Of a DNA stretch of 64,000 bases, positions 6,729 through 38,107 are shown piece by piece. The stretch spans positions 41,160 through 105,159 of the forward strand of contig CAYHEC010000010.1 of the NCBI GenBank assembly GCA_964355675.1, given 5' to 3'. The translations under genes and the position numbers were made by a program. The notes under the pieces are model-generated. The model had not been told where the DNA came from. It saw nothing but the letters and a program-made list of their open reading frames with translations, and did not search any database. Source of the DNA: an uncultured Caldithrix sp. GTDB taxonomy: Bacteria; Electryoneota; AABM5-125-24; Hatepunaeales; Hatepunaeaceae. The stretch's first letter is position 1. Each line of letters starts with the position of its first letter.

Positions 6729-7826
6729 CTATAGCGATCTCAAAAGGATTTGAATCACTTCATTAATCATCTCGCCGGTCAGTTCCGGGAACATTGGCAA
6801 CGACAGTTCCTCATCGCCAAGCTGTTCAGCGACCGGAAAATCACCTCGTTTGTAGCCAAGTTCGGCGAAGCAGCCGAGGAGGTGTATCGGAATCGGGTAG
6901 TGAATTCCAACTCCAACGCCCGCTTCCTGCAACTTCTTCAGTACACCATCCCGGTTCTTCACCCGGACTGCATAAACGTGGTTGACATGGCGGGCATAGT
7001 CCATCTCTTTGGGAGCAATAACTCCGGGGACGGCGTTCAATAATTCACAGTAAAGCTTGCCAGCCTTCCGGCGTCCTTCCGTCCATGATTCAATGTGGGC
7101 CATCTTGACGCCCAGCACTGCGCCCTGAATGCCTTCCATCCGGTAGTTATAGCCCTTCAGGTCGTGATAGTATTTCTTCTCGGCTCCCCAGTCGCGCAGA
7201 ATTTTGACGGTCTTGGCGAATTCTTCGTTGTTGGTAGTGACCGCACCGCCTTCGCCATACGCGCCAAGATTCTTGCCGGGGTAGAAGCTGAAACCGGCGA
7301 TGTCACCCATCGACCCGCAGCGCCGGCCTTTGTATTCAGCGCCGTGAGCTTGAGCGGCGTCTTCGATGACGATCAGGTTGTGTCGTTTGGCGATTTCGAG
7401 GATCGGGTCCATATCCGCTGACTGGCCGTAGAGGTGAACTGGCATGATAGCCTTGGTTCGAGGTGTAATGGCGGCTTCGATTTTGGCTGGATCGATAGTA
7501 TAACTTTCCGGATGAATGTCAACGCAGACGGGTTTGGCGCCGGTGTAATCCACTGCCATGGCCGTTGCTACGAAGGTCATTGCCGGGATAATAACTTCAT
7601 CGCCGCGCTTGATCCCAGCGGCAAGCAACGCCAGATGAAGAGCGCTGGTTCCGGAATTAACCGCCATGGCATGTTTACAGCCGGCGTAGGGTGCGAACTT
7701 GGCCTCGAAATCAGCTACGGCGGGTCCAAGGACAAATGAGGCGTTTTCAAGAACTTTGCCGATTGCGGCGTCGATCTCGGGTTTGATACTGCGATATTGA
7801 GCTTTCAGGTCCACAAAGGGTATCAT
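6729..7826 (-). CDS. DegT/DnrJ/EryC1/StrS-family PLP-dependent sugar aminotransferase (WbpE/ArnB-like)
   Basis: 'MIPFVDLKAQY' start, 'AVNSGTSALHLAL' and 'GDEVIIPAMTFVATA' motifs typical of the DegT family; canonical ATG at 7826. Confidence 0.9.
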   Translation of the reverse strand: MIPFVDLKAQYRSIKPEIDAAIGKVLENASFVLGPAVADFEAKFAPYAGCKHAMAVNSGTSALHLALLAAGIKRGDEVIIPAMTFVATAMAVDYTGAKPVCVDIHPESYTIDPAKIEAAITPRTKAIMPVHLYGQSADMDPILEIAKRHNLIVIEDAAQAHGAEYKGRRCGSMGDIAGFSFYPGKNLGAYGEGGAVTTNNEEFAKTVKILRDWGAEKKYYHDLKGYNYRMEGIQGAVLGVKMAHIESWTEGRRKAGKLYCELLNAVPGVIAPKEMDYARHVNHVYAVRVKNRDGVLKKLQEAGVGVGIHYPIPIHLLGCFAELGYKRGDFPVAEQLGDEELSLPMFPELTGEMINEVIQILLRSL

Positions 7827-7837
7827 TCGATAATCTC

Positions 7838-8851
7838 CTAATTGTTTAATTCGATAAGGCTGCCGCGCTGGCTCATAGACTCAGTGGCGGCTTCGAGAAT
7901 GCGGACAATTCGTAATCCGGAATCGGCATTGGTGATCGGTTTCTCGCCAGTTTGAATGCAGTGTAGAAAGTGTTTTGCCATCAAGCCTAATGCTTCACTG
8001 CCGTCCAGTTTAGGACACCACATATCACCAGAACGATAGCCGACTCTCATTTCATAGATATTCTTGGGATCATTGTCGAATGTAATCCCTTTATCATATA
8101 TTTTGATTTTTTCAGTTGGTTCGATGTCATCATAGAGGATCATCTTCTGACTGCCACCGATCAATGTCTGCCGCAGCTTTACGGGTGAGAGCCAATTCAC
8201 GTGGATGTGTGCGATGATCGGCTGTTCAAAAAAAAGTGTAAGATAGGCGACATTCTCCGGCTTGCCCGGGACATGCTTGATACCGGTCGCTGATACCGAA
8301 ACCGGCTTCTCTGTGAAGATAAAGTCGAGGATCGAAAGATCATGGACTGCCAGATCCCAGAGGACGTTCACATCATGTTGAAAAAGCCCAAGATTAACTC
8401 GGACAGAATCATAATAATAAATGTCGCCTAATTGACCGCTTGAAACCAGCTCCTGAATTTTCCTTACCGCGCCGGTAAAAGGAAAAGTGTGATCGACCAT
8501 GAGGATCAGATTGCGTCGAGACGCTTCTTCAATCAGTAGTTTTGCTTTCTTCGAAGAGTCTGATAGTGGTTTTTCGACCAGAACGTGCTTGCCTGCCAAG
8601 AGCGCCGCCATTGCCAGATCGAAGTGGGTAGATACAGGCGTTGCGATAGCAACCGCATCGACTTCTTTGCTGGTGAGTAACTCGTTGAAATTAGTAGTAG
8701 TTTTAATTGATGGATATCGATTTTTTACCTGAGCGAGTCGTGATTCGATCATGTCAGAAACCCAGGTGACCTGCGCTCCGGCCGACTCCATAAAATTGCG
8801 GACCAAATTAGGTCCCCAGTAACCGTAGCCGATGACTCCTATACGGAGCAT
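7838..8851 (-). CDS. Gfo/Idh/MocA-family NAD(P)-dependent sugar oxidoreductase (WbpB-like)
   Basis: N-terminal 'LRIGVIGYGYWGPN' Rossmann motif and 'EKP' motif characteristic of Gfo/Idh/MocA. Confidence 0.85.
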   Translation of the reverse strand: MLRIGVIGYGYWGPNLVRNFMESAGAQVTWVSDMIESRLAQVKNRYPSIKTTTNFNELLTSKEVDAVAIATPVSTHFDLAMAALLAGKHVLVEKPLSDSSKKAKLLIEEASRRNLILMVDHTFPFTGAVRKIQELVSSGQLGDIYYYDSVRVNLGLFQHDVNVLWDLAVHDLSILDFIFTEKPVSVSATGIKHVPGKPENVAYLTLFFEQPIIAHIHVNWLSPVKLRQTLIGGSQKMILYDDIEPTEKIKIYDKGITFDNDPKNIYEMRVGYRSGDMWCPKLDGSEALGLMAKHFLHCIQTGEKPITNADSGLRIVRILEAATESMSQRGSLIELNN

Positions 8852-8870
8852 AATTGTAATTCCTTCCTTT

Positions 8871-9266
8871 TTATGCGCGTGCGATGATAATTATTCCAGC
8901 CAATATGACGAGAATTCCGGTAGCTTTGATCATATTGAAAGACTCATGAAATAATGGTACTGCCCCGGCTGTTACCAAGACAAAAGTCATTCCAACAAGA
9001 ATCGGGTAACTGGTGCTGATCTCAGCAATGGATAAAACTTTAAACCAGACTAGAGAAGCGATTCCATAGCAAATTATCCCTAAAACGAACACAGGTTGTA
9101 AAGCAAGCCGGAGCGCCATTTCCCAGGCTCCCCCAGAGAGTGTAAAGCCGCCGACCTTCAGCAGACCGTAGCGCATGGTCAAGTTTGCGGCCACGGTCAA
9201 TAAGGCGCTTATTACAATCAGGACGAATATCTGAAGAGTCAACCTATTTCGCCCGGTTTCGAACAT
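8871..9266 (-). CDS. Small 4-TM membrane protein, EamA/SMR-like (ArnE/ArnF-like flippase subunit candidate)
   Basis: Track ORF 8871..9344 overlaps the upstream gene by 100 nt; an internal Met (9266) gives a ~130-aa hydrophobic protein; family assignment is by architecture only. Confidence 0.45.
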   Translation of the reverse strand: MFETGRNRLTLQIFVLIVISALLTVAANLTMRYGLLKVGGFTLSGGAWEMALRLALQPVFVLGIICYGIASLVWFKVLSIAEISTSYPILVGMTFVLVTAGAVPLFHESFNMIKATGILVILAGIIIIARA

Positions 9267-9777
9267 CCCCGCGCAAGCGCGCCGGGACGCCAGCGACAAC
9301 TGCATGAGCTTCGACACTTTTTGTGACGACGGCTCCTGCGCCAATCATTGCATTCTCTCCAATAGTAATGCCTGCCAGAATTACTGCTCCAGAGCCAATC
9401 GAAGCGCCTCTTTTAATTCTTGTGGGAATTACAACCCAGTCAGCCTCAGTCTGAAGTTGTCCCTCGGAAGTAGCGCGTGGAAAAAGATCGTTGATGAACA
9501 TAACTCCGTGTCCAACAAAGACATCATCTTCAATAGTTACTCCTTCGCAGACAAACGTGTGTGAGGATATCTTGCAACGGGCTCCGATAAAGGCGTTTTT
9601 TTGAATCTCGACAAAAGCACCAATTTTGGTTTCATCACCAATTTGGCATCCATATAGATTAACCAGCTCGGGTTGAAATATGCGAACGTCCTTTCCGAGT
9701 ATGACGTTGTTACTTACGGGCATAGATTGACTCCATTGGTTTATAATAAAGTGGTGCACATCTTGTGATGCGCTCAA
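9244..9777 (-). CDS. Hexapeptide-repeat (left-handed beta-helix) sugar N-acetyltransferase (WbpD/WlbB-like)
   Basis: Repeated [LIV]-G-x-x-x-x hexapeptides ('IGAGAVVTKSV', 'IGSGAVILAGITIGENAMIGAGAVV'); ~175 aa; adjacent to DegT and Gfo/Idh/MocA genes. Confidence 0.85.
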   Translation of the reverse strand: MSASQDVHHFIINQWSQSMPVSNNVILGKDVRIFQPELVNLYGCQIGDETKIGAFVEIQKNAFIGARCKISSHTFVCEGVTIEDDVFVGHGVMFINDLFPRATSEGQLQTEADWVVIPTRIKRGASIGSGAVILAGITIGENAMIGAGAVVTKSVEAHAVVAGVPARLRGDVRNRAK

Positions 9778-9784: not shown

Positions 9785-11002
9785 CTACGGATTTGAATAA
9801 GGATGCATTAATTCGATCAGCTGTTTTGTGGTAACTTCTACATTGAAATCGGTCATAACACGACGCCTGCCAGCCTCGCCGATTTGCTGTCTAAGTTCTT
9901 GGTTCTGAATCAACGATTCAATCGCGTCAGCCAATGCCTGGCTATCACGAGGAGGCACGAGTATTCCAGCTTCATCGTGTAACAATTCTAGTATTCCACC
10001 AGTTGTAGTCGAGATTACTGGTATGCCATAAGACATTGCTTCCATAAGCGCGACAGGTATTCCTTCATGCACGCCGAAATCTAATTCAATACTTGGGAGA
10101 ATTACTATATCTACGGAATTGCTCGAATAGCGATTCAGTAACTCTGCATGTTCAAGATGCCCCACAAATTCAACACAACCTCCTATTCCAAGGGTAGTCG
10201 TTAAGGCACGAAGCTCAGCCTCCAAGAATCCAAATCCAGCGAGGATCAATCTACAAAAAACATTTCGTTTGATTAATATAGCCAGAGCGTTAAATAAGTA
10301 AATATGACCTTTGACGGGATACAAATGTGCTGGACAAAATAAAATAATCTCTTCATTTAAATCAAGCAACTTTTGCTTAGATGTTGGGGGAATCCTTATT
10401 CCCATATGAATTACTTTGCAGGATTCGGGCATTTTTTCACGTTGAAGGGATTGACAGAGGTGCAATCCACTTAATGAAATAAACCGAGCAAAGACTGAAC
10501 TCTTCAGCTTCTTATTAAACATATTATTATCAACGATGTCCCACCGGTGTGCAGTGAAACTCCATGGTATTCCTGTCAGATTACTGGCAATCATTGCCAT
10601 GGTTGAAGTTGCAGAAGCCCATTGCGCATGAATATGGTTCACTTTATTTTGAATAGCTACTTGAGACAACCACAGCGCCTTAGGGAAAACCAACATGTTC
10701 TTCGTAAGATGAGTTAAAGAATTACTCTTTCGAATGATTAATAAAAATAGTGAAATTACGTTTATTGGATGTTTCAACAGAACTATAATAGAACTTAATA
10801 ATATCTGAAGCGAGAAGAGTGGTTGAAAAATACAGAATTCTTGTAGTTTCGTTGCACGGTCTTGGACCACCCGACGACTGTCTGGAGATCGTGGAATTAT
10901 CAGTAGGTCTATGTCTTGATTGATAAGTTCCAGCATTTCATCAAGAAAGAACTCCTCTCCCGACCCAAGCGGTGTTCGAACTGTAAGATAAATTAATCTC
11001 AT
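9785..11002 (-). CDS. GT4-family (GT-B fold) glycosyltransferase
   Basis: C-terminal 'EGIPVALMEAMSYGIPVISTTTGGILEL' motif (E-x7-E type) typical of GT4. Confidence 0.85.
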   Translation of the reverse strand: MRLIYLTVRTPLGSGEEFFLDEMLELINQDIDLLIIPRSPDSRRVVQDRATKLQEFCIFQPLFSLQILLSSIIVLLKHPINVISLFLLIIRKSNSLTHLTKNMLVFPKALWLSQVAIQNKVNHIHAQWASATSTMAMIASNLTGIPWSFTAHRWDIVDNNMFNKKLKSSVFARFISLSGLHLCQSLQREKMPESCKVIHMGIRIPPTSKQKLLDLNEEIILFCPAHLYPVKGHIYLFNALAILIKRNVFCRLILAGFGFLEAELRALTTTLGIGGCVEFVGHLEHAELLNRYSSNSVDIVILPSIELDFGVHEGIPVALMEAMSYGIPVISTTTGGILELLHDEAGILVPPRDSQALADAIESLIQNQELRQQIGEAGRRRVMTDFNVEVTTKQLIELMHPYSNP

Positions 11003-11071
11003 AATTCAATTGAATTTAATAATAACAAAAGAGGATTATCAATAAATATATTCTTGAACATAGGTTGAAAG

Positions 11072-12160
11072 TTAGGAAGCATTGGTCAGTAATTTTTGAT
11101 AGTAATCAAATAACTGATCTATAGTAATCGAGTAGTCGTATTCAGCCAAAACCTTATCCCGACCTCGTTTGCCAAAATCCAGGACAAGTTGTGGATTATG
11201 TATCAATTGAATTAGAAGCTCAACAAGACCGTGAACATCACCCGGCGAAAATAAAAAACCTGTAACACCATGCTCAACAAGAAGTGGTATATCGCCAACA
11301 GAAGTTGCAACGACCGCTCTGCCGACAGCCATGGCTTCCATCACGGCGTTGGGCATCCCTTCATCTAAAGATGGATGGACTAAAACAGACGACTTAGCTA
11401 TTTCATGGTGAATATCAAGTGAAATACCTTTCAGTTGTATTACATCAGCGGAATTGTGTTGCTCGATTAGGTCGGATAGGTTGCCGCGCTCAGGTCCATC
11501 TCCAAACATTTCCAAGGATACGGATTCCCCCAATTCCCTCAATGTAAGAACAGCTTGGATCAATGTTGACCAATTTTTGTTCACAAGCAACGATCCAACT
11601 CCTATAATACGAAATGGATCTGTATTTGGCACAGTGTATTCAGGAAGATCTGATTTGCTTAATCCATTTGGAAGAAAGTGAACATGTCGAGGTCGATAAC
11701 GGTGATCAATACAATTTGCTTCGTTTGCTACCGCCATGCTATTGTATGTCATATGCATGGGCCACTTAGCCGAGATTATTCCCTTGAAGGAGCCGGTGCA
11801 TGTTATGGAATGTGCAATACTTCCGCGGATCGAACCCACCGGTAAGGTGGAATTGCCTAAAGAAGCTAATTGAGCAATAAAATTTGTAAAAAACGACCAT
11901 GAGTGTAAAATATGGGGTTGATACGATTCGATTAATTCTCTAAGCCATAGAATTTTACGCCATGAAGGCCAAGCATAATTTGGTAGAAAGAGTGGAATTT
12001 TCGATTCATTTAATCTGCTTTGATAGACAGTATCAGGCGTAGAATTCCAAACAGCTACAGCAATTTGGTGTTTATTGCGATCTATATTATTAACTAATTC
12101 ATATAATTGACGTTCCGAGCCGCCATAACTCATCTGACCGATAAGATAAAGTACTCTCAT
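11072..12160 (-). CDS. GT4-family glycosyltransferase
   Basis: 'MRVLYLIGQMSYGGSERQ' N-terminus and C-terminal 'DEGMPNAVMEAMAVGRAVVATSVGDIPLLV' GT4 motif. Confidence 0.8.
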   Translation of the reverse strand: MRVLYLIGQMSYGGSERQLYELVNNIDRNKHQIAVAVWNSTPDTVYQSRLNESKIPLFLPNYAWPSWRKILWLRELIESYQPHILHSWSFFTNFIAQLASLGNSTLPVGSIRGSIAHSITCTGSFKGIISAKWPMHMTYNSMAVANEANCIDHRYRPRHVHFLPNGLSKSDLPEYTVPNTDPFRIIGVGSLLVNKNWSTLIQAVLTLRELGESVSLEMFGDGPERGNLSDLIEQHNSADVIQLKGISLDIHHEIAKSSVLVHPSLDEGMPNAVMEAMAVGRAVVATSVGDIPLLVEHGVTGFLFSPGDVHGLVELLIQLIHNPQLVLDFGKRGRDKVLAEYDYSITIDQLFDYYQKLLTNAS

Positions 12161-12190: not shown

Positions 12191-13702
12191 TTAAGCGACA
12201 ATAGTTTGTTTCTTATTAATCAATTTGGTAAATGAGTGTACTGGATTCCCTTTGAGATCAATACGTGCAGTCTTCGAGTATTTGACGGATAGCGCATACG
12301 ATTGAACCATATTATAACAAGCTATTGACGAGCCCATACTGAACCAGAGTAGTTTATCATAGCTGCCTTGTGTAGTCAAATTACCTAATAACAATATCAT
12401 GAAAATACTCTGCCATGCTCCGTTAATTGCGTTTAGATGCTTAAATCGGGTTTTATTGGCCACATAAAATAAATAGCCAGCACTCCCGAACATCAGCAAA
12501 TACAGTGCTAATCCAACCGAGCCGGTCTCTGCTAAAATAGAGATATAGCCATTATGTGCAACCAAGCGCAAGTGGCCCTGGTCGAGGGTAGTGGCGGCAT
12601 ATTTTGGTAATAGTGTTTGATAATTTCCAATTCCAACTCCGGCAATAGGGTTGTCCTTCCACATATTGATAGCAGCTTTCCATAGCTCAAATCTCAATCC
12701 TACCGTGTCAGTTTTATTCACAATCGAAGGGATCAGTTTCTCTTGCAAAAAATTCAAATATGCTGGCGGTATAATTACTGCCACAGTGATCAGCAGAATG
12801 GCAATCTTACTTAATACTGGTAAATGTAATATATTTCTATATATATATATATTCAATAGAATTGCTATTAGGAGTAGTAGTATACCGGTTCTCGAACCAG
12901 TGTAAACGGTTCCCATCACCAAAATTAATGCTGCAATCAGATAATGTATATTTTGGGTTCGTTTTGGTTGATTAACCCATAAGTAAATAACCATAATTAG
13001 CGCCACCACAAAATATCGGGCAGACGAGTTCGCTGCACTCATCAATCCGCCTGATCTGATAAACACATCCGTTGAGATTTCGCCAACGAGAATTGCTGCT
13101 ATGGCGGAAATACAGCACGATATTGTAAACCAAATAAATACGAATCGGTTTGAATCAATTGAATTTAGCATGCCTTTTACCATCCAAGCCATTGCGAGCA
13201 ATTGTAAGAAAGTAAGAGTCCAAATTCTACCACCTGTTGGTAACAAAGCTTCAAAATAGGTAATAGTGATCCAAACGGTAAGTAATAACCCATATAGCAA
13301 AGGATAACTATTAGTAAATTTTTTACTCGATTGCGGTAAGATAGTGGGTGATTTAACTATAATAAAAGAGATAATAGTTAAAAAGCCAATAATTAAGTAC
13401 AGTGATGATAAATATGGTATATCAGGAAGAAGATTCTCAATCGGTAATAATATCATTATAAATGCAAGTCCGATAAGTGGTTTTTTAGTAATAATTATTA
13501 TACTTGTTATTGTAAATATAGTCAATCCAATAATTGGGGCAAAGCTAAAAATTGATTTAAAAGACGAAATACCTACTGCTAATCCAGCCGAGAGCAATAA
13601 CGCAATCACCCTTCTGTTGTTCGAGACAGGTCTTGAGGTATCACGACGAATAGCATAAGGATTACGAGGAGCTACTCGTTGTTTTGCTATATTATACTGC
13701 AT
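12191..13702 (-). CDS. O-antigen ligase / polymerase family membrane protein (Wzy_C domain)
   Basis: About 12 TM segments; conserved 'HNGYISILAETGSVGLALYLLMF' motif of the O-antigen ligase/Wzy family; very AT-rich coding sequence. Confidence 0.75.
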   Translation of the reverse strand: MQYNIAKQRVAPRNPYAIRRDTSRPVSNNRRVIALLLSAGLAVGISSFKSIFSFAPIIGLTIFTITSIIIITKKPLIGLAFIMILLPIENLLPDIPYLSSLYLIIGFLTIISFIIVKSPTILPQSSKKFTNSYPLLYGLLLTVWITITYFEALLPTGGRIWTLTFLQLLAMAWMVKGMLNSIDSNRFVFIWFTISCCISAIAAILVGEISTDVFIRSGGLMSAANSSARYFVVALIMVIYLWVNQPKRTQNIHYLIAALILVMGTVYTGSRTGILLLLIAILLNIYIYRNILHLPVLSKIAILLITVAVIIPPAYLNFLQEKLIPSIVNKTDTVGLRFELWKAAINMWKDNPIAGVGIGNYQTLLPKYAATTLDQGHLRLVAHNGYISILAETGSVGLALYLLMFGSAGYLFYVANKTRFKHLNAINGAWQSIFMILLLGNLTTQGSYDKLLWFSMGSSIACYNMVQSYALSVKYSKTARIDLKGNPVHSFTKLINKKQTIVA

Positions 13703-14791: not shown

Positions 14792-16056
14792 TTTGTAACC
14801 TTGTCATTTTGTATTGATTTATAAAATCTTTGGAAGCTATTAGGCGTGATTCTTTTTCTACTTTTACTCTTCCCAAGCCCGAACTGCTGGACACAATCAC
14901 TGTAATGTTGCTCCACTTGGTCAAGAATTTTAGAAACCGAAAATTGTGATTCGGCTTTTAACCTGCCTGCAAGTCCAAGTCTGGCGGCAAGTTCCTTATC
15001 ATTAAGAAGCTTGATAATTGCCTCGGCAATCTCATCAGGACTTTCAGGGCTAATTAAGAGACCATCCCTCCCATCATCAATTAACTCCTCTCCACTGGTG
15101 CTTCGAGAATAAATTGTTGGGCACTCACAAGTCATCGCCTCGAGCGCCGCCAGACTGAAAGCTTCTGCGAACGAGGGAAGAATTACAACTCCGGCCTGAG
15201 GCAGAACCTCTGATATCAATTGGGAGCGATCAACTGCGCCGTGCATAAAGACGTTGTTACTTTCAGTAGCGCCATATTGCCTCATCAGCATCTCACTCAT
15301 CTTTTCTCCTGATGGTAAGATGGTATCTTTACCAAAAACATGCAATTCGGCTTCGGGCGATTCAATCCTAACTTTAGCCCAGGCAATAACAAGAGATATT
15401 ATACCTTTCTTCTCGGTCATCGTCCCAAAGAAAACGACTTTCAGTGGATCTCTAACAATTGTTGACTTCTTCATAATTATTTCGGCTGGATTGTAAATGA
15501 CATGAATATAACGCTTGTCAAGTTCATAGATTTTATTGAATATTTTGGCTGTATATGCACTGACCGCAATCCTATAGTCTGCGCGATAAAAGGAAGAATA
15601 ATCCAAGAGCGCGGTGATTCGATCTAACTCTCGATTCAATATCGCAGCAAAATACGTGGAAGAGCCGTTACAACGCATAATTACCGGAATTGGTAAGTCG
15701 CCCCAAAATGCACACCAACCACCGTAATCTGGAACTTCGATGAGATCGATTTCGCCTGACAGCGCCCAATCACAAATTTGATGGAATAATTTCCAACGCA
15801 TTCCGATCCAACTAAATCGCATCGAAGGAGCACGTAACCGAAATACTTGTACGCCCTGATCGTTTTCCGAATCAGGAGCTGGGTAAGACTTTGGATAGAC
15901 TCCCACGACACGAACCTGATGGCCACGTCGTGCAAGTTCTCTGGCGAAAAGCTGGACCATCGTGCCTATACCACCATGTGGACCAGGAGGGTATTCGGAA
16001 CAGATAAAACAAATTTTCATTATTTTATTGTTACTCAAAAGACTGATCGATGACAT
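14788..16056 (-). CDS. GT4-family glycosyltransferase
   Basis: 'MKICFICSEYPPGPHGGIGT' N-terminus and C-terminal 'EAFSLAALEAMTCECPTIYS' motif; true start probably the internal Met. Confidence 0.8.
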   Translation of the reverse strand: MSSISLLSNNKIMKICFICSEYPPGPHGGIGTMVQLFARELARRGHQVRVVGVYPKSYPAPDSENDQGVQVFRLRAPSMRFSWIGMRWKLFHQICDWALSGEIDLIEVPDYGGWCAFWGDLPIPVIMRCNGSSTYFAAILNRELDRITALLDYSSFYRADYRIAVSAYTAKIFNKIYELDKRYIHVIYNPAEIIMKKSTIVRDPLKVVFFGTMTEKKGIISLVIAWAKVRIESPEAELHVFGKDTILPSGEKMSEMLMRQYGATESNNVFMHGAVDRSQLISEVLPQAGVVILPSFAEAFSLAALEAMTCECPTIYSRSTSGEELIDDGRDGLLISPESPDEIAEAIIKLLNDKELAARLGLAGRLKAESQFSVSKILDQVEQHYSDCVQQFGLGKSKSRKRITPNSFQRFYKSIQNDKVTK

Positions 16057-17422
16057 TGACTATCCGCTTGCCTGCTTCTCCATCAACTTGCCCACAAATT
16101 AAATCTCGAACGGCAACTCGTTCTTGACGTCTCTTTCCAGGCAGTAATATTGCTTCCTCAACAAATTCGATCAACTCAGAAATGTCATTGGCAGTTGGAG
16201 CGGCTCCGGAAGCATTTATAGGTTCATAATGATGACAATGACAAATATTGTTATAGAAATCATGCTCCTTGGACTCCCTATCAACGTGAAAACCAATATT
16301 TACAAAGGGACGATCCAAAACAGCACAATCGAGCGCTATTGAGGAAGTCATGCTGAATACAACGGTAGCATACCTGATACTATTCGTAAGTAAAGCCATT
16401 TCATATAATCCAGGTGAAGCCCAGATGTTTTGGAGAGATTGACTACTTGCCCAAGGTAAGGACAACGTTACTTCTGGATAGGTCTGAATCAGATTTTGCC
16501 ATCTTGCGAAATTGTCAAACGGGTGGAGACGTAATACCCACTTTATGTCTTTACCATTTTGTATTTTACGAGTATTTTCGATAATAAAGGCTAAATTCTC
16601 TGATTCACGTGGTGTTAAGCTTTGATGATTGGCACAATACAGGAAATATTCCTGGTTTGAGACTAAACCTAATTCACTAAGTGTGTGTTGCAAATCCCAT
16701 TGAAATTTTGGTAAAATATGATAATCAAATTGAGGTGTTCCGGTTATCGTTATTTTACTCTTTGATATATTATAGAATTCAATTAGCTCTTTGGTCATCA
16801 ATTCACTCCATGTCATGTAATGATCAAATTTCGACCAAGGTCGATAACCTGCACTGGTCAGATTGTCAAAAGATAAAATGTGGGTAACAGTTGGTATGCC
16901 GATTTTTTGAAGGGCGCGGAAAGTCAGCCATTCGGATATTGTGCGAAAATTTGTTGAGAATGCAAGTGATAGCTTCAATTTTTCAAGATCCCTAAGCATA
17001 CTTTTAGAAATTAAGGTATTAAATATCTTCTCTTCGAAATTCTTTATTAGTAAATAACCTTTTTCAAAATCAGCGATAGGCGACGCAAGTTTATAATAAT
17101 GTTGACTTAATCTATCATGCAATGATTTGGTATTTAACTGAAATTTATTTTTGACCAAACTGTCGCCAGTATTGATTTGATGGCGATTAAAAAATGATTT
17201 AGTAAGGGAATCCAAAGCTAATCTATGCAGTCTTTTTGACGGATAATCCTGCAATAACCATATCTCAGCTTGTTTCCCCATTGAATTTCGAAAGCTCTCC
17301 TCTGCTTGTGGCGGGATCCCCCAGATAACTTCATATTTTGATTTCAATGAATCAGCAATGCCAGAATTGATAACATTTCTATAAGAAAACGAACTCGGAA
17401 TACTTACCAATATTCTATTCAA
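16031..17422 (-). CDS. Hypothetical GT-B-like transferase (TagF/KpsS/polysialyltransferase-like architecture), candidate nonulosonic-acid transferase
   Basis: 463 aa; C-terminal 'LRLHPFDN ... ALLTNSIRYATVVFSMTSSIALDCAVLDRPFVNIGF' resembles the HP / donor-binding region of TagF- and KpsS-like enzymes; weak call. Confidence 0.3.
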   Translation of the reverse strand: MNRILVSIPSSFSYRNVINSGIADSLKSKYEVIWGIPPQAEESFRNSMGKQAEIWLLQDYPSKRLHRLALDSLTKSFFNRHQINTGDSLVKNKFQLNTKSLHDRLSQHYYKLASPIADFEKGYLLIKNFEEKIFNTLISKSMLRDLEKLKLSLAFSTNFRTISEWLTFRALQKIGIPTVTHILSFDNLTSAGYRPWSKFDHYMTWSELMTKELIEFYNISKSKITITGTPQFDYHILPKFQWDLQHTLSELGLVSNQEYFLYCANHQSLTPRESENLAFIIENTRKIQNGKDIKWVLRLHPFDNFARWQNLIQTYPEVTLSLPWASSQSLQNIWASPGLYEMALLTNSIRYATVVFSMTSSIALDCAVLDRPFVNIGFHVDRESKEHDFYNNICHCHHYEPINASGAAPTANDISELIEFVEEAILLPGKRRQERVAVRDLICGQVDGEAGKRIVNVIDQSFE

Positions 17423-17437: not shown

Positions 17438-19279
17438 TCAAAATTGTTTGTTTATAAACTGTCTGTGCCACAGCTCGACATTGATCCATTGCCAAATAAA
17501 AAAGGCATTGCTGTTATCACCTTTGCAATAACCATCAAATAGTCGCTTCACTTCAGAAACTTTAAAGTACCCTCTGTTTGCAAATTCTGAACTATTAATC
17601 AATTCGATAACCCAAGATCGCAATGGACCTAAAAACCACTCACGCTGTGGAGAGACTACTGCCCGTTTGCCCGACCAACAGAGTTGCCGAGGCAATTTTT
17701 CAGTCATCGTCCTGCGCAAAAGATATTTACCTAAACCATTCTTGATTCGTAAATGACCTGGTAAGCGAAACAAATACTCTACGATTCGATGATCTAAATA
17801 GGGTTCGCGCAATTCGCGGCTAAATGCCATCGATAACCGATCATTCATGCGCAAAACTCTTGGCAATTTTGTCCAACGCAGGTCACGAAATAATATTCTT
17901 CTTAACGAATCAGGGTATGAGCTATCGAAATTTGGCGCCACCATGCCGTGATCGGCTATATCATTACTTACTCCTTCTGGACGAAGGTGGTTTGTACCGT
18001 CTTGATACACATTTATCCAGCCACCATTGCTGAGGATGGATTTTGCCTGAGATAATTCAGTTTTCCAACTTTTACCCAAGCCACGAAGATTGGCATGAAG
18101 CTCCGCCCATATACGATTATGTATTAAATCTGCAAGATAATAGGGTCTCATATAATTATAGCCTGCCAGCATTTCATCGACTCCCTGTCCTTCGAGCAGT
18201 ACCGTAACTCCCATCTCTTTTGCTAATTTATGTTGATAATGATAGGCTATCGTCGAAACCCCACCGAACGGAGCTTCCTGATGCCACATAACCTCATCGG
18301 CAAGCTTTATCACATCGACTGGGGCGAGCCTTTGGTAATTCCTTTTCCAATTTGAATGAGTTATAATACTATCGGCAAATCCCTTTTCGTCATATTGTGG
18401 ATCATCATATCCGGCTGTAAATGTTTGTATTTCGCCATCTTTATCAATAATATCATCGACCGTAACAAGCAGACTTGCCGAATCCAGTCCTCCACTTAGA
18501 TTAACACCTACCGGGACATCACTTCGCAGGCGCAAACGAACCGAATCATTCAATAACCTACGAAATTCTTTCACGACCTCGTCCTCAGGAGCATTTACAA
18601 TATCTAAGGTTAAATCAGCCAAGTCCCAATATCGACAAATAGTGATTTCGCCATCGTTAACTGTCAGCGTACATCCGGGAGGGAGTACCTTTATCCCAGC
18701 GAAAAAGGTGTCGTCTGAATGATCAAAATAGCCATGTACAAGGTAATCTGCCCAAATTCGATGGTTTGGTTCGGCTTTGAAACCAGAGGCCAGAATTGCC
18801 TTGATTTCTGAGGCAAATAGGAACAAATTACTGTTAACTACATAGTGAAATGGCTTGATTCCAAGACGATCACGCGCGCAAAACAAGCAGTTTTTACGCG
18901 GGTCCCAAATTGCAAATGCAAACATGCCGATAAAGTGGTCAACACATTTTTCACCCCATCGATCGTAAGCGGCTAATACTACTTCTGTATCAGTTGCGCT
19001 TCGATAGGGGTAATCAAATAGTTCTTGTTTTAATTCAATATAATTATATATTTCACCATTCAGTACGATCCATCTTCCACTACGCGAATCTTCCATTGGT
19101 TGACTTCCAGAGGTCGAAAGATCGATGATGCTGAGTCGATTGTGACCCAAGCCAACCCGTCCGTCGTCAGAAATCCATGTTCCGTCTGAATCAGGACCGC
19201 GATGATGTTGAACTTTGACCATCGCCAACAAGTCCGGGAGCCGCCAACCCTTGCCGATTATCCCTGAGATGCCACACAT
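17438..19279 (-). CDS. Asparagine synthetase B-like glutamine amidotransferase (WbpS-like sugar amidotransferase)
   Basis: N-terminal nucleophile 'MCGISG' (class II GATase) plus PP-loop 'LSGGLDSAS'; 613 aa. Confidence 0.9.
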   Translation of the reverse strand: MCGISGIIGKGWRLPDLLAMVKVQHHRGPDSDGTWISDDGRVGLGHNRLSIIDLSTSGSQPMEDSRSGRWIVLNGEIYNYIELKQELFDYPYRSATDTEVVLAAYDRWGEKCVDHFIGMFAFAIWDPRKNCLFCARDRLGIKPFHYVVNSNLFLFASEIKAILASGFKAEPNHRIWADYLVHGYFDHSDDTFFAGIKVLPPGCTLTVNDGEITICRYWDLADLTLDIVNAPEDEVVKEFRRLLNDSVRLRLRSDVPVGVNLSGGLDSASLLVTVDDIIDKDGEIQTFTAGYDDPQYDEKGFADSIITHSNWKRNYQRLAPVDVIKLADEVMWHQEAPFGGVSTIAYHYQHKLAKEMGVTVLLEGQGVDEMLAGYNYMRPYYLADLIHNRIWAELHANLRGLGKSWKTELSQAKSILSNGGWINVYQDGTNHLRPEGVSNDIADHGMVAPNFDSSYPDSLRRILFRDLRWTKLPRVLRMNDRLSMAFSRELREPYLDHRIVEYLFRLPGHLRIKNGLGKYLLRRTMTEKLPRQLCWSGKRAVVSPQREWFLGPLRSWVIELINSSEFANRGYFKVSEVKRLFDGYCKGDNSNAFFIWQWINVELWHRQFINKQF

Positions 19280-19998
19280 TATTTATCTATTCCCAATTTT
19301 TTACGCATTAGGACTTCAACCATTGCCATATCGTTTTCGTCATCGACGCCTACAGAGCGTTCGGGAGGCATTATATAAGGAATAATCTTGTGACCCCAGA
19401 TTGAATTTTCTTCCAGTAGAACATCGCGCCGCGTAAGATAAATTGCACCATTCCGCATATACGCTGGGGGAGAGTAATCTTGTCTTCTTGTGCCCTCTTT
19501 TTCCTCAATACAAAATGGCTGAAGGTATCCTTCTTCGATCTTCTTCATTAACATAGGGTGAACCGAAAATACCTGGACTACGCTAATCACAGAGTCGCCA
19601 TTACCTTGTACACCAAGTTTTATGGCTTCCTCAATATCTTGCACTGTTCGGAAAGGTTCTGTTGGCTGTAAAAGGCATATCCAGTCAAGTCTTTGATTAT
19701 CACGCTGTTCAATGAAATGGGCTGAATGCTGGAGAACGGGTATCATGGGAACTTTATCATGGGACAGCTCTGGTGGCCTAATAAATGGAACAGTTGCCCC
19801 TGCTTCCCTCGATATTTGTGCTATCTCCTGATCATCAGTAGAAACAACAATATCGCAGAAAAGGTGCTTTGCGGCAAGAGCGGTTTCTATGGTATAAACG
19901 ATCATCGGTTTACCGCATACCTCGCGCACATTCTTCCGGTGAACGCCTTTTGATCCACCTCGTGCAGGGATAACTGCCAATATTCTTGGGTCTGCCAT
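19279..19998 (-). CDS. Acylneuraminate cytidylyltransferase family (CMP-nonulosonic acid synthetase, NeuA/LegF/PseF-like)
   Basis: 'ILAVIPARGGSKGVHRKN' signature; canonical ATG at 19998 overlapping the upstream stop (TAATG). Confidence 0.85.
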   Translation of the reverse strand: MADPRILAVIPARGGSKGVHRKNVREVCGKPMIVYTIETALAAKHLFCDIVVSTDDQEIAQISREAGATVPFIRPPELSHDKVPMIPVLQHSAHFIEQRDNQRLDWICLLQPTEPFRTVQDIEEAIKLGVQGNGDSVISVVQVFSVHPMLMKKIEEGYLQPFCIEEKEGTRRQDYSPPAYMRNGAIYLTRRDVLLEENSIWGHKIIPYIMPPERSVGVDDENDMAMVEVLMRKKLGIDK

Positions 19999-21149
19999 TA
20001 GTAGGTAAGTTTTTTGTCGATTTTTAATTCGATTGTAGATAGAATATCAGCGATTCGGTCTCCGGCACAGCCATCGCCGTATAGACTATCTGATGGGTAA
20101 TGTCCATGTGCAAGCTGGTGGGCAATTGCTTCTGTAATCTCTTGATGATCGTATCCGACATCCAACACATTCGAAGCGCGATCCCGACCACCCTGCCGAC
20201 TACCAATATTTACCACAGGAACTCCCAAGAAGGAAGATTCCCGTATTCCAACGCTTGAATTGCCAATTAGACAACGAGCTTGAGTGAGTAGATTCAGAAA
20301 ATCTTCAGGTGGTAAATTCTTATAAAAATATATATTACGAATATCATTTTGCTCGCGGAATAATCTCATCCCTTTAGAGATATGGTCAGAACCTGCGTCA
20401 ACATTGGGCCAGAACCAGAAAGTCGGCAGGTCAAGAGTTTTGACAGCCTTAAGGGTTTCGGTAATTTGAAAGAGCCCCTCATCGACTTCGGTCGTCACCG
20501 GATGTTGCATTACAATCAAATATCCGTTTTCAAGATTGAATGTGTGCCCAACTCCGCCATATTTGACCAAAGGGTTAAAATGCGAAATTGGATTCTTCTT
20601 GACTCGATCAGCCAAATCTATGGATGGACAACCGGTAATGAAAATCGTAGTAGGATCTTCCCCCATTTTTTCCACACGAACTTTGGCTTGAGAGTTAGAA
20701 ACGAAGTGAAAATTTGAGAGTTTGGTTACAGCATGCCGGACTTTCTCATCGATAGAGCCTGTTACTTCCCCGCCTTGAACGTGAGCAACGGTGATATTCA
20801 AATAGGATGCGGCTATAGCCGTTGCGATTGTCTCGTATCGATCTGCAACAGTTACAACAATATCAGGCTTGAGATTATCGAAAATCGTAGCAAGCTCAAC
20901 AACGCCTAATCCGGTTGATTTGGCGGCGGTGACAAGATTCTCACCCTCCAAAACCATATAGACAACGGCGTCGGGTGTAAAGCCATCACTCCGAATAACA
21001 TCGATGACAGGTCCATAACGCTCCAGGAGCGCCGAGGCGCCTACCACCAATTGTAATTTTAAATCCGGATGCAACTGCACAGCCTCCAGAACAGTCTTAA
21101 TACGAGAATAGCTTGGGCGCGCGGTTACAACGATACAGATATTTCGGAT
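19998..21149 (-). CDS. UDP-N-acetylglucosamine 2-epimerase, NeuC/WecB family; 5' end extended beyond the track ORF, candidate ATC start
   Basis: 'HVQGGEVTGSIDEKVRHAVTKLS' core motif; in-frame upstream codons encode 'RNICIVVTARPSYSRIKTVLEAV', which is the conserved NeuC/WecB N-terminus, with no ATG/GTG/TTG between the in-frame TAA TAA (21162-21167) and the GTG at 21080. Confidence 0.8.
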   Translation of the reverse strand: MRNICIVVTARPSYSRIKTVLEAVQLHPDLKLQLVVGASALLERYGPVIDVIRSDGFTPDAVVYMVLEGENLVTAAKSTGLGVVELATIFDNLKPDIVVTVADRYETIATAIAASYLNITVAHVQGGEVTGSIDEKVRHAVTKLSNFHFVSNSQAKVRVEKMGEDPTTIFITGCPSIDLADRVKKNPISHFNPLVKYGGVGHTFNLENGYLIVMQHPVTTEVDEGLFQITETLKAVKTLDLPTFWFWPNVDAGSDHISKGMRLFREQNDIRNIYFYKNLPPEDFLNLLTQARCLIGNSSVGIRESSFLGVPVVNIGSRQGGRDRASNVLDVGYDHQEITEAIAHQLAHGHYPSDSLYGDGCAGDRIADILSTIELKIDKKLTY

Positions 21150-22111
21150 AGTAAAATACCTTTATTAAAATTTGATGTTGAAATAAAAGACATTAGCTTT
21201 TCAGCCATAAATCGCTCTGTCGCATGCATCGACTGCCATGTTGCGCCACCGAGATGAGGTGTGATTAACAAATTCTCATTGGTTCTTGCATAATCGATCA
21301 GTATGTTCGAAGTATCAGTATTTGTTCTTTCCTCTGACAATACATCGAGTGCGGCGCCGGCTAAATGACCAGATTTCAGATGCTCAAGAAGTGCCGGATC
21401 ATCAATAATTGCTCCCCGCGAAGTATTTATCAATAATGATCCTTTGGGTAGCCAATCGAATTCTTCGGAACCGACCATCCCGGATGTATCTGCATTTAAA
21501 GGGACATGGATCGAAAGGACATCACAATTCTGAAAAAGCTCCTTCATGGTGTTATAGCGAACAAGACTGGGATGATTAAAATCCTCAATATCAAAATATC
21601 CAACCGACATCTTGAAAGCTTGCCCGAAACTTGCGACTTGTTTCCCCACTCGACCAAGACCAAGGATGCCAAGCCGTTTTCCAGCTAATTCAATTCCTTT
21701 AAAACGATCGCGATCCCACTGACCTTCACAAACAGAATTGAAGGCTTGAGGTATATTTCTCGCAAGTGAAAGTAATAGCGCCCAGGTATGCTCGGCAGTG
21801 GCGCGAATTGAAGAAAGAAACTCGTACTCACCACGAAGACTTAATACGGTAATCCCCAATTGCTTAGCAGAGTCCATGTCGATATGATCGACTCCGGTCG
21901 TTGGTGTGACTATCACTTTTAGTCTATGCCCTGAAGACATAAGTTCTTTATCAATATTGTGTTTCAGTCGTGTAATTAACACTTCGATAGACGGGATTTC
22001 GGTCAATAGCTCTTGTCTGGTCAGCTCTCCTTCACAATATTCACCCAACTTCTTATAAATATTCTGCGCTTCTGATGAGTAGTCAGACGGTTCAAGATTC
22101 CATATTCGCAC
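21125..22111 (-). CDS. D-isomer-specific 2-hydroxyacid dehydrogenase family (NAD-binding)
   Basis: 'GKRLGILGLGRVGKQVA' Rossmann motif and 'NTSRGAIID' / 'AALDV' catalytic region typical of D-2-hydroxyacid dehydrogenases. Confidence 0.8.
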   Translation of the reverse strand: MRIWNLEPSDYSSEAQNIYKKLGEYCEGELTRQELLTEIPSIEVLITRLKHNIDKELMSSGHRLKVIVTPTTGVDHIDMDSAKQLGITVLSLRGEYEFLSSIRATAEHTWALLLSLARNIPQAFNSVCEGQWDRDRFKGIELAGKRLGILGLGRVGKQVASFGQAFKMSVGYFDIEDFNHPSLVRYNTMKELFQNCDVLSIHVPLNADTSGMVGSEEFDWLPKGSLLINTSRGAIIDDPALLEHLKSGHLAGAALDVLSEERTNTDTSNILIDYARTNENLLITPHLGGATWQSMHATERFMAEKLMSFISTSNFNKGILLSEISVSL

Positions 22112-23118
22112 TATGCGAAGTCCTCTTCAGTTACCGGTCTGTTTTCGAGAACATCGTTCTTCAGTCTGCGTCCAATAATGGTTTCCAATTTGTCGAATCG
22201 CAAGCCTGCTCCGGCTTTCTTTAGAGTAACATCGTTCCTGGCTAAAACGCTCCCGGCTTTAAGATCATGAGAAGCAACCAGACTTTTTGCGAATATACTC
22301 CGAGTGGTTGAAAGCTCTTCGGCTATGGTATTTTTGGTCACGGGATTATTCTGGACCGTTTCGATAAACCTCACACCTGCCACCAAGTCTTTCAATTCCG
22401 AGGTAGTTATCGATGAGGAAACATCGGGGCCAAACATTTCTCGAGATAGGGTCACATGCACTTCAATTAGATCGACGCCGAGCATCGCAGAAGCAATCCC
22501 GGGATAGATTGTACCGCTGTGGTCGGAAAGCCCAACTTTACAACCGTAACGATTTTTATACAGCGGTATCAAATTCAATCCGACCTTTTCGGGAGGCGTA
22601 GGATACATCGATGTGCATTGTAATAAAGTAAGTTCATTCCCAAGAGTCTTGATGTACGATACAATTTCGTCTAATTCGGAAAGAGAACTCATTCCAGTAG
22701 AAATCCAAATTGGTAAAGCGGTGTCTGCCATCAATTGAAGTAGTGGCTTATTGGTGACTTCACCTGAGCCAACTTTCCATGCGGCGACACCGATTTTCGA
22801 GAGCATCTCGGCGGCTTCCATGGAAAAGGGAGAGCTTAAGAACAGCAAATTTTGTTCAACAGCATGTGCATTTAGCCCAAGCCACTGCTCCTGAGTGAAT
22901 TCCATTCGGCGCCAGTAATCATATCTGGTAGAGTCCTGATAACTGAATTTGACCCGCCATGGTTCGCTGGGAGTGCTTTCTGCCGCGGCAATATGCGTTT
23001 GAAACTTTATGCCATCAGCCCCGGTCCGTGCGACCGCATCGATGAAGGCATGGGCTTGGCCAAGACTGCCATCGTGGGTTTGGGAAACTTCGGCGATGAT
23101 CAGGATACTGTTTTTCAT
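22111..23118 (-). CDS. N-acetylneuraminate synthase family (NeuB/LegI/PseI-like nonulosonic acid synthase) with C-terminal SAF domain
   Basis: 'ILIIAEVSQTHDGSL' TIM-barrel start, 'GLSDHSG' metal-binding motif, C-terminal SAF/antifreeze-like domain. Confidence 0.9.
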   Translation of the reverse strand: MKNSILIIAEVSQTHDGSLGQAHAFIDAVARTGADGIKFQTHIAAAESTPSEPWRVKFSYQDSTRYDYWRRMEFTQEQWLGLNAHAVEQNLLFLSSPFSMEAAEMLSKIGVAAWKVGSGEVTNKPLLQLMADTALPIWISTGMSSLSELDEIVSYIKTLGNELTLLQCTSMYPTPPEKVGLNLIPLYKNRYGCKVGLSDHSGTIYPGIASAMLGVDLIEVHVTLSREMFGPDVSSSITTSELKDLVAGVRFIETVQNNPVTKNTIAEELSTTRSIFAKSLVASHDLKAGSVLARNDVTLKKAGAGLRFDKLETIIGRRLKNDVLENRPVTEEDFA

Positions 23119-23124: not shown

Positions 23125-24180
23125 TTAATTTAAGCTATCTCTCAAATAACTTTCGAGTGTTTTCTCTATGTCCGGTCGATGCCGTATATTATAGTAATGG
23201 CGCATTTTCAATATCTTCAACTGAAGCGTACTCAAACTACTCAGGATCCGGTAGTGGGTCACAATATCGGCTGAAGCGCCGCTTTGTGCCATGTGGTTTA
23301 TTGCCAATTCAGCAGTCTGGCGAGAGTTCGCTAACAATTCCCATAATGCGATTTTTGCCCAGAACTGTTGACGTTCCCATGAATACTCGGGATTGAGGAT
23401 TTTCCTGATTAGCCACCTGAGCCTTGCTTTCCCTCTTACTTCCTTTATATTCGATACCCATTCCCCAGTTATCGGCTCTTTCTTATAATAGTCAGGAAAG
23501 TACTTTGCCCTTACTCGATTTCCTTCAATCTGTGTAGAGGTCATACTATTTGCTGATAAAGAAACAAGATATAAAGGCTCAGCTATTTCATAACCATTTG
23601 CAACTTGCAATATTCTTATCCAGAGCGGTACATCACCCATAGTAAAATCTGTATCATAACCACCGACGCTCAAAGCTACTTTCCGGTCGAAAATCACTGT
23701 AGCATCACCAAATCGGCGTCTTTTGAAAAATTGTCCAGTTAACATTTCGACACTAAGTTTTCTGGATTTAAATCTATTCTGAAAGACCTCTTCAAAAATA
23801 TGATTAAAAGGGGTTAAATACATAAAGCCAGTACCGACCATTTTATATTCGGGATTTTCTTTTAAGAATGACATTTGTTTTTCGATTCGGAGTGGGAAAC
23901 TAATATCATCAGCATCCATTCGTGCAATCCACTCCGTTGTAGCATTATCCAAACCCCATTGTAAAGCTCCCTGAAATCCAACGGGACCCAATTCAAATAC
24001 TTTTACACGGTGATCTGTTAAGAAAGTGCGGGCAATTTCGGCAGTGTTATCCGATGATCCGTTCTCTAAAACCCATAATTCAAAATCAGAGAAGGTCTGA
24101 TTAAGAATACTCCGAATCGCTGGGCGTATCGTGGATTCGGCATTATGGGCAGGAAGGAAAACTGTTAATGCAGAATTAAT
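23125..24180 (-). CDS. GT2-family glycosyltransferase; conserved N-terminus lies upstream of the track ORF, candidate ATT start
   Basis: Track ORF starts at TTG 23991 inside the domain ('RMDADD' follows); in-frame upstream codons encode 'LTVFLPAHNAESTIRPAIRSILNQTFSDFELWVLENGSSDNTAEI' (GT2 N-terminal motif) back to TAA at 24241-24243, with no ATG/GTG/TTG. Confidence 0.65.
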   Translation of the reverse strand: MNSALTVFLPAHNAESTIRPAIRSILNQTFSDFELWVLENGSSDNTAEIARTFLTDHRVKVFELGPVGFQGALQWGLDNATTEWIARMDADDISFPLRIEKQMSFLKENPEYKMVGTGFMYLTPFNHIFEEVFQNRFKSRKLSVEMLTGQFFKRRRFGDATVIFDRKVALSVGGYDTDFTMGDVPLWIRILQVANGYEIAEPLYLVSLSANSMTSTQIEGNRVRAKYFPDYYKKEPITGEWVSNIKEVRGKARLRWLIRKILNPEYSWERQQFWAKIALWELLANSRQTAELAINHMAQSGASADIVTHYRILSSLSTLQLKILKMRHYYNIRHRPDIEKTLESYLRDSLN

Positions 24181-38067: not shown

Positions 38068-38107
38068 TGCGCGCTCAACAGGTCGATGATTGCAGTTACT
38101 ATGCCGC

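Follow-up and report, generated by a model that had tools for sequence, protein, structure and literature searches.

AsnB-family paralogues that modify sugars are already known, and the system described here is not of a new kind. WbpS, WbqG of Escherichia coli O121 and PGN_1234 of Porphyromonas gingivalis belong to the eps_aminotran_1 family (TIGR03108) (PMC7468200). These sugar-directed examples make carboxamides (PMC7468200, PMC6025236): deletion of PGN_1234 abolished the glucuronamide form of the T9SS (type IX secretion system) linking sugar (PMC7468200), and wbpS mutants of Helicobacter pullorum lost HexNAcAN (PMC6025236). A further AsnB homologue, Tanf_01265 of Tannerella, has been speculated to form an acetamidino group on a nonulosonic acid (NulO) (PMC6120980). 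Here we describe an AsnB-family gene at positions 17438–19279 (minus strand) of a 64,000-nucleotide stretch of DNA, hereafter the window, from an uncultured Caldithrix sp. (GCA_964355675.1, contig CAYHEC010000010.1, positions 41,160–105,159). The gene adjoins genes for the synthesis and activation of a NulO, and in our view it very probably encodes a NulO-pathway amidotransferase. More tentatively, with somewhat less than an even chance of being right, we read it as a dedicated NulO tailoring enzyme that would convert the C-1 carboxylate of the sugar to a carboxamide, a chemistry that we infer.

The gene is an uninterrupted, ATG-started open reading frame (ORF) of 613 codons, running on the minus strand from 19279 to 17438, and its product begins with MCGISG. 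The N-terminal class II (N-terminal nucleophile, Ntn) glutaminase domain spans residues ~1–200 (18680–19279, minus strand), where the Pfam families GATase_7 and GATase_6 together match residues 29–164 (GATase_7 alone: residues 46–164, E = 1e-41). The C-terminal synthetase (ATP pyrophosphatase) domain occupies residues 238–606 (17462–18568, minus strand) and matches Pfam Asn_synthase (PF00733) over its full length (profile positions 1–354 of 354, E = 9e-73). The general NCBIfam model TIGR01536 is passed with 415 bits (cut-off 267); none of the specific NCBIfam models is passed by the 613-aa protein, and the E. coli-type AsnB model NF006949, at 238 bits versus a cut-off of 499, is not reached. 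AsnB of E. coli K-12 served as the alignment reference, in mature E. coli numbering. Against it the glutaminase site is conserved as Cys2 (E. coli Cys1), Arg48 (Arg49) and Asp97 (Asp98), with Asn74 and Glu76 at identical numbers, and the synthetase site as Lys538 (Lys449) and the PP-loop S262GGLDS267, the ATP alpha/beta-phosphate binding motif, whose codons (18479–18496, minus strand) were located by alignment to relatives and to E. coli AsnB. None of these residues varies among 168 relatives.

An AlphaFold (AF2) model built from 30 relatives is confident (predicted local distance difference test, pLDDT, 83.6; predicted template modelling score, pTM, 0.88), and the nearest solved folds identified by Foldseek are TsnB9, E. 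coli AsnB, human ASNS, beta-lactam synthetase and carbapenam synthetase. The top matches (TsnB9, 1CT9 and 6GQ3) have target-normalised template modelling (TM) scores of 0.73–0.78 and display the two-domain AsnB fold. The product of 17438–19279 is an intact AsnB-family two-domain amidotransferase, and the preliminary description of this DNA, which had named an enzyme of AsnB type that has a PP-loop and uses Cys2 as its nucleophile, is borne out by the Pfam and TIGR01536 matches and by the E. coli AsnB alignment. An identical copy of the same gene was found in metagenome contigs only.

The genes immediately upstream, all on the minus strand, encode a NeuB-type NulO synthase with NeuB and SAF domains (22111–23118, profile matches), a 3-phosphoglycerate dehydrogenase-like (PGDH-like) D-2-hydroxyacid dehydrogenase between neuB and neuC (21125–22111, profile matches), a hydrolysing UDP-GlcNAc 2-epimerase of NeuC type (19998–21080; TIGR03568 346 bits, above the cut-off of 236) and a CMP-nonulosonate synthetase, that is, a NeuA/PseF-like cytidylyltransferase (19279–19998; Pfam CTP_transf_3; TIGR03584 163 bits, below cut-off). 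The TAA stop of neuA shares bases with the ATG of the amidotransferase gene in the overlap TAATG. The placement of the gene beside NulO genes and inside a glycan locus, as proposed earlier, therefore holds: the matches to CMP-transferase, NeuC-type epimerase and NeuB go far beyond chance, and the surrounding operon is one of glycan biosynthesis. The dehydrogenase is conserved as part of the module; among solved structures, human PHGDH matches it best (166 bits). Literature searches for AsnB together with neuA/neuB, and for a 2-hydroxyacid dehydrogenase together with neuB/neuC, gave nothing relevant, and no paper mentioning such a dehydrogenase gene with neuB/neuC was found; we know of no role for it in any NulO pathway.

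Relatives of the protein were compared. The closest share 58% identity with it. A scan of public genomes with the protein gave relatives of at most 40% identity, which were used as the comparison set, and a metagenome scan with the alignment of the clade described below added four more close loci only, its patterns being generic to the wider family. Gene-call tables were examined for 14 relatives of 51–58% identity, and 12 of these repeat the set of NeuB, 2-hydroxyacid dehydrogenase, NeuC-type epimerase, cytidylyltransferase and AsnB-like protein, often in the order seen in the window and often followed by a TagB-like protein. The window NeuB, NeuC, NeuA and dehydrogenase were first searched against 170 comparison loci, and the search was repeated on 174; context counts were limited to loci with at least 8 kb of sequence (18 clade loci and 105 other AsnB-like loci). 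NeuB and NeuA homologues were present at 17 of the 18 clade loci versus none of the 105 others (p = 6e-20, Fisher's exact test, a value inflated by the shared ancestry of the loci, which are not independent), and the dehydrogenase at 12 versus none. The full module of NeuB, PGDH-like dehydrogenase, NeuC, NeuA and AsnB-like protein occurs at 15 independent loci, counting the window and loci L092, L176 and L177. In L091, L093, L007 and L174 the module genes are reshuffled, yet their link to the AsnB-like gene is kept. Of 21 distinct clade loci examined, 8 have NeuA no more than 5 nt upstream of the amidotransferase gene, and another two have it no more than 70 nt upstream.

Carriers of the module include both uncultured and cultured bacteria from at least four phyla, judging by source titles, which name Bacteroidota (with the cultured Flavobacterium fluvii DSM 19978, NZ_FQWB01000003.1, locus L009, whose orthologue lies at 10001–11824), Saccharibacteria, Alphaproteobacteria and Longimicrobiales (Gemmatimonadota). 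Four loci (L008, L009, L174 and L176) are minimal modules without dehydratase, aminotransferase or uronic-acid genes, and since they lack uronic-acid genes, the NulO is the sole obvious acid there.

Two of the 14 tabled relatives (L004/5 and L089) adjoin another ulosonic-acid cassette. This alternative cassette (L004/L005, L089 and L087, 13377–20520) comprises a cytidylyltransferase, a GFO oxidoreductase, a short-chain dehydrogenase/reductase (SDR), a short NeuB without SAF domain, a TagB-like protein of ~490 aa and a HAD or SIS-HAD phosphatase. In L086 (9037–9990), L089 (9037–9990) and L174 (7050–7994), a UbiE-type S-adenosylmethionine (SAM) methyltransferase of ~315 aa is encoded directly upstream of the amidotransferase, and its target for methylation could be either the newly added nitrogen, amide or amidine, or the sugar.

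In a neighbour-joining tree, every NulO-linked sequence falls into one clade of 21 tips. Two of its tips have no visible NulO genes, and both lie on contigs (3.3 and 5.2 kb) whose length does not suffice to reveal such genes. We defined an active-site signature as positions with a conservation of at least 85% within the clade that at most 15% of 151 other sequences share, and 22 alignment positions satisfied this definition. In the window protein the signature includes Asn260, Gly340, Thr343, Tyr346, Glu363, Gln365, Tyr376, Arg465, Lys471, Pro473, Arg474 and Arg477, all carried by the synthetase domain, and it is borne by six more clade members as well. Projected onto E. coli AsnB, it falls into three substrate-contacting segments of the synthetase site. 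Asn260 corresponds to Leu232, the group of Gly340, Thr343 and Tyr346 to the 323–329 loop, Glu363 to Ser346 and Gln365 to Glu348; Tyr376 corresponds to Tyr359 (Arg or Lys in the other sequences), Arg465 to Arg375 (neutral in the others), Lys471 to His381 (Leu in the others), Arg474 to Asp384 (Glu or Asp in the others) and Arg477 to Arg387. Gln365 and Arg474 are fixed in the clade; their E. coli counterparts are Glu348, part of the SGEGSDE motif, and Asp384, a residue of the aspartate site. The signature brings a net gain in basic residues, Arg465 and Lys471 among those gained, which suggests that the substrate, as bound, would keep an anionic group, for example a CMP phosphate or a carboxylate.

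At three clade loci a second AsnB paralogue is found directly downstream (L172, 9890–11827; L173, 9927–11975; L177, 9985–11895). It lacks the signature, lies outside the clade and adjoins an ADH-GFO fusion gene and a glucuronyl-C5-epimerase-like gene, which makes it a candidate for a true uronamide synthase. The presence of two differing AsnB paralogues side by side implies two different substrates. Given their monophyly, signature and adjacency to NeuB/NeuC/NeuA, we propose that the AsnB-like amidotransferases linked to NulO modules form a distinct, new subgroup.

On weak evidence, the sugar made by the module is probably of neuraminic type. Among solved structures, the window NeuB is closest to the N-acetylneuraminic acid (Neu5Ac) synthase of Neisseria meningitidis (SiaC, 160 bits; PseI 129 bits) and the window NeuC to the epimerase domain of human GNE (216 bits; LegG 182 bits), and no 4,6-dehydratase or aminotransferase lies near the minimal modules. 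Directly downstream of the amidotransferase, a TagB/Glyphos_transf-like protein of 463 aa is encoded (16031–17422, minus strand; Pfam Glyphos_transf 43 bits), a putative CMP-nonulosonate glycosyltransferase. Its TTG start is doubtful, a later start having been chosen in another assembly's gene call. The only NCBIfam model that the protein and its counterparts match consistently is NF046086, weakly and below cut-off (28–88 bits for the counterparts); one counterpart passes TIGR04396 with 333 bits. Members of the NF046086 family, BFO_1060 and Tanf_01245, are those whose knockouts abolish transfer of the pseudaminic acid (Pse) or legionaminic acid (Leg) derivative in Tannerella (PMC5420450). The TagB-like protein is a remote relative of this Tannerella transferase family and probably transfers the modified sugar.

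In the scheme that we put forward, NeuC, NeuB and NeuA would make and CMP-activate a Neu5Ac-like sugar, while the amidotransferase would hydrolyse glutamine at Cys2 and channel the ammonia to its synthetase site. There an oxygen of the sugar would be adenylated at the PP-loop and AMP then displaced by ammonia, turning the C-1 carboxylate into a carboxamide, either on the CMP-sugar or on a lipid-linked glycan; the modified sugar would then be added to the glycan by the downstream TagB-like transferase. The NulO as substrate, the atom amidated and the stage of the reaction are the parts of this scheme that we infer. The C-1 carboxamide is favoured because all biochemically or structurally characterised PF00733 enzymes found in the solved-structure searches activate a carboxylate, and because C-1 of the ulosonic acid is the only carboxylate common to all cassettes. 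Carboxamide formation from a carboxylate is also what AsnB-family enzymes canonically catalyse. As no solved sugar amidotransferase of the AsnB family was found in the sequence and fold searches, the substrate is not readable from a homologous complex.

Several points weigh against a C-1 carboxamide, besides the shared ancestry of the loci already mentioned. CMP-sialate synthetases, which activate the sugar, and sialyltransferases usually need a free carboxylate, so that amidation would have to come after activation or transfer. We know of no description of a NulO C-1 carboxamide from nature, and a literature search on NulO amidation gave none, although such absence is not proof. The scheme offers no place for the 2-hydroxyacid dehydrogenase, conserved though it is. 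In addition, Gln at the position of AsnB Glu348 also occurs in 42 of the 151 non-clade relatives and is not diagnostic alone, and the signature loop at residues 472–487 is modelled at low confidence.

The genomic evidence applies equally to a different chemistry, in which the enzyme adenylates the carbonyl oxygen of the 5-N-acetyl group on the NulO or CMP-NulO and ammonia yields an N-acetimidoyl group, giving a zwitterionic sugar of "Neu5Am" type. Enzymes of the PP-loop superfamily do adenylate amide or ureido oxygens, as in argininosuccinate synthetase, GMP synthetase and QueC, and a substrate other than a carboxylate could be in keeping with the lost Glu348 equivalent. The SAM methyltransferases directly upstream in L086, L089 and L174 have a parallel in the N-methylacetimidoyl legionaminic acid of Campylobacter. 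Acetamidino groups are, moreover, the best-known nitrogen-adding modification of NulOs (Pse5Am7Ac, Leg5Am7Ac and Pse5Am7Gra; PMC5420450), and the Tannerella homologue Tanf_01265 has been proposed for the same role (PMC6120980). That role is itself a proposal, however, and the Tannerella glycan contains a uronamide too. Amidine formation is not known for any PF00733 enzyme, the solved or characterised relatives acting on carboxylates, and the enzymes known or proposed to form acetamidino groups (WbuX, PseA and WbpG) belong to another family, which the protein does not match. The modification is known on 5,7-diamino NulOs, whereas the clade modules are of Neu type and lack the dehydratase and aminotransferase of Leg and Pse synthesis. 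We regard acetamidino formation as unlikely, though it is the main rival of the C-1 carboxamide.

A further alternative brings in the dehydrogenase, which would supply an acid such as a D-malyl, 2-hydroxyglutaryl or glycerate-derived group, so that the carboxylate being amidated would belong to a non-sugar substituent or aglycone on the NulO or a neighbouring sugar. Dehydrogenase and amidotransferase do occur together in the 15 independent loci, window included, and malate and 2-hydroxyglutarate are the hydroxy analogues of aspartate and glutamate, the natural substrates of AsnB-type enzymes. Malyl and 2-hydroxyglutaryl substituents are known from marine and flavobacterial glycans, and their amides occur in bacterial glycans, also beside NulOs in a Flavobacteriaceae O-antigen (PMC3210612). 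Nevertheless, the dehydrogenase is missing at six clade loci (L006, L008, L009, L097, L004 and L089), which shows the amidotransferase to be independent of it, and no ligase or acyltransferase that could attach the acid is conserved in the module. This makes an amidated substituent improbable.

Amidation of a hexuronic acid by a WbpS-like uronamide synthase, for example of a 2,3-diacetamido-glucuronic acid made through the WbpB/E/D-like genes at 6729–9777, is distinctly improbable. These genes do lie 8–10 kb downstream in the same operon direction, there is genetic evidence for AsnB homologues in this role in P. gingivalis and H. pullorum, and the P. gingivalis gene adjoins wbpE. Against this, the TIGR03108 score of the window protein is 381 bits versus a cut-off of 817; its clade relatives score 307–418 bits, mainly over the N-terminal half, and fall below the Wbp-linked relatives L136 and L057, which reach 569–581 bits over the full length. 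No UDP-sugar 6-dehydrogenase was detected in the 64 kb by Pfam searches of all ORFs of at least 150 aa or by a scan for the catalytic motif, and the motif was seen at 1 of the 18 clade loci versus 23 of the 105 others. The GFO enzyme best matches UDP-GlcNAc 3-dehydrogenase, not the uronate-specific type; close relatives keep the NulO genes and not the Wbp genes; and the C5-epimerase loci L172, L173 and L177 have their separate, signature-less AsnB paralogue beside that gene. The low TIGR03108 score, the missing 6-dehydrogenase and the separate NeuB/NeuC/NeuA-linked clade argue against a WbpS-type uronamide synthase, and the uronamide part of the preliminary description is not supported. Its suggestion of an acetamidino group formed by a WbpS-type enzyme had merged two proposals, WbpS-type enzymes being those for uronamides and acetamidino formation belonging to the unrelated WbuX/PseA/WbpG type.

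We give hardly any credence to an ordinary asparagine synthetase placed by chance within a glycan locus: the "equivalog" cut-off of TIGR01536 is passed and several sources name the relatives "asparagine synthase (glutamine-hydrolysing)", but NF006949 is far from reached, other residues stand in place of Glu348 and Asp384, translation of the gene is coupled to that of neuA, the clade is tied almost exclusively to NulO modules, and the name by itself cannot tell the two functions apart, since PGN_1234 and other sugar amidotransferases characterised by genetics carried the same annotation (PMC7468200). The gene is almost certainly a glycan-modifying paralogue and not a housekeeping asparagine synthetase.

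Other assignments of the protein were considered and rejected. An N-acetyl-sugar amidotransferase of WbuX/PseA/WbpG type is not indicated by any NCBIfam match (E up to 0.01), and the architecture is that of AsnB. A lasso-peptide or beta-lactam-type cyclase would be at odds with an NF033535 score of 339 versus a cut-off of 525, with the intact Cys2 and glutamine site, and with the lack of partner genes. For an XrtA/PEP-CTERM amidotransferase, the TIGR03108 score is below cut-off and the window ORFs that were scanned revealed no exosortase. Lastly, a lactam-forming or amide-ligase role without ammonia was dismissed on the grounds that neither the glutaminase nucleophile nor the glutamine site varies.

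The wider locus is a minus-strand block from ~3.7 kb to 39 kb devoted entirely to glycan biosynthesis. It begins with a Wzm/Wzt ABC exporter, a split transketolase, SDRs and an aminotransferase, and glycosyltransferases (GTs) with Gmd, followed by the series of NeuB, PGDH-like dehydrogenase, NeuC-type epimerase, NeuA/PseF-like cytidylyltransferase, amidotransferase and TagB-like protein, and ends with a GT4, a GT2, a Wzy_C protein, two further GT4s and a WbpD/WbpB/WbpE-like trio. This trio (6729–9777, minus strand) consists of WbpE-, WbpB- and WbpD-like proteins, namely an aminotransferase, a GFO oxidoreductase and a hexapeptide acetyltransferase, and probably makes a 2,3-diacetamido sugar, not a uronic acid. 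The transketolase is split into two ORFs (34113–35827, minus strand), an N-terminal half and a pyrimidine/C-terminal half, whose presence in the operon suggests a step in which a sugar gains a two-carbon branch or has its chain extended. A Wzy_C-type polymerase/ligase (12191–13702) and the Wzm/Wzt ABC exporter with a Wzt C-terminal domain (36793–38959), both on the minus strand, represent components of two distinct glycan export routes within one operon-like block. A GT2 ORF at 23125–23991 (minus strand) aligns only from profile positions 65–118 onward, its N-terminal part missing, and is followed by 260 bp of sequence before another gene begins; it may be a gene remnant, or its start may have been wrongly called.

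Beyond this block, 40419–48908 (plus strand) encodes a protein of 2829 aa that combines LVIVD repeats with many ASH/HYDIN-type Ig domains and carries a T9SS sorting domain at its C terminus, which suggests a host from the Bacteroidota/FCB group. A second glycan block occupies 52379–60259 (minus strand), with GT2-GT4 fusions of 743 and 918 aa and another DegT aminotransferase, and is adjoined by two large ORFs without Pfam match (48989–52274).

Taken as a whole, the five-gene module (NeuB, PGDH-like dehydrogenase, NeuC, NeuA and AsnB-like protein) has, in our estimate, close to an even chance of making a sialic-acid derivative undescribed in nature, either a neutral Neu5Ac C-1 carboxamide or a zwitterionic 5-N-acetimidoyl neuraminic acid, perhaps altered further by the dehydrogenase. 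To our knowledge, neither a C-1 carboxamide nor a 5-N-acetimidoyl group has been described on a Neu-type sugar, and neither a NulO-dedicated AsnB clade nor a five-gene module with the dehydrogenase was found in the searchable literature. Sialic-acid-like sugars act largely by their negative charge, in host mimicry, in recognition by phages and lectins, and in cation binding by the biofilm matrix. Removal of this charge on a Neu-type sugar (carboxamide) or its balancing (amidine) would amount to an uncatalogued surface chemistry and, if true, to a new substrate class for AsnB-family amidotransferases. Both candidate modifications would give the same shift of -0.98 Da relative to Neu5Ac, and a C-1 amide would also escape the standard 1,2-diamino-4,5-methylenedioxybenzene (DMB) assay for alpha-keto acids. 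The clade signature allows automatically annotated "asparagine synthase" genes to be re-annotated and separated from the WbpS type, and F. fluvii DSM 19978 is a cultivable carrier in which the prediction is directly testable. The outcome would also have a bearing on the origin of the acetamidino group in Tannerella pseudaminic acid.

Several known systems stand close to the enzyme. WbpS, WbqG, PGN_1234 and H. pullorum WbpS share with it the two-domain AsnB architecture and a location in glycan loci, and, based on knockouts, are believed to convert a sugar carboxylate to the primary amide in a glutamine-dependent manner (PMC7468200, PMC6025236). They differ in belonging to the TIGR03108 group and in being encoded with a UDP-HexNAc 6-dehydrogenase or Wbp genes, whereas the window protein is encoded with NeuB, NeuC and NeuA and has an active-site signature of its own; its score on the family model is far lower. 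Tanf_01265 of Tannerella forsythia, an AsnB homologue of 605 aa, likewise lies a few genes away from a NulO pathway and a TagB-like NulO transferase. Its cluster differs in making Pse or Leg, not a Neu-type sugar, and in encoding WecB and WecC, and the glycan contains ManNAcCONH2; given WecB/WecC and ManNAcCONH2, Tanf_01265 may be a uronamide synthase.

PseA, PtmG, WbpG and WbuX are also tailoring enzymes of NulOs or amino sugars that add one nitrogen, by ATP-dependent chemistry of PP-loop type, but they form another protein family without a fused Ntn glutaminase domain, and the window protein does not match it. E. coli AsnB (1CT9) and human ASNS have the fold, the glutaminase residues, the PP-loop and the Lys449 equivalent in common with the window protein, which differs from them in its overall sequence (~22% identity), in the replacements of Glu348 by Gln, Asp384 by Arg and Leu232 by Asn, in a longer C-terminal region, and in its glycan operon in place of a housekeeping context. 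The best solved match by both sequence and fold is the hydroxyamidotransferase TsnB9 (7YLZ; 185 bits, Foldseek E = 6e-33), which acts in the trichostatin hydroxamate natural-product pathway and is only 25% identical, yet is equally an AsnB-like tailoring enzyme and has a non-amino-acid carboxylate as its substrate.

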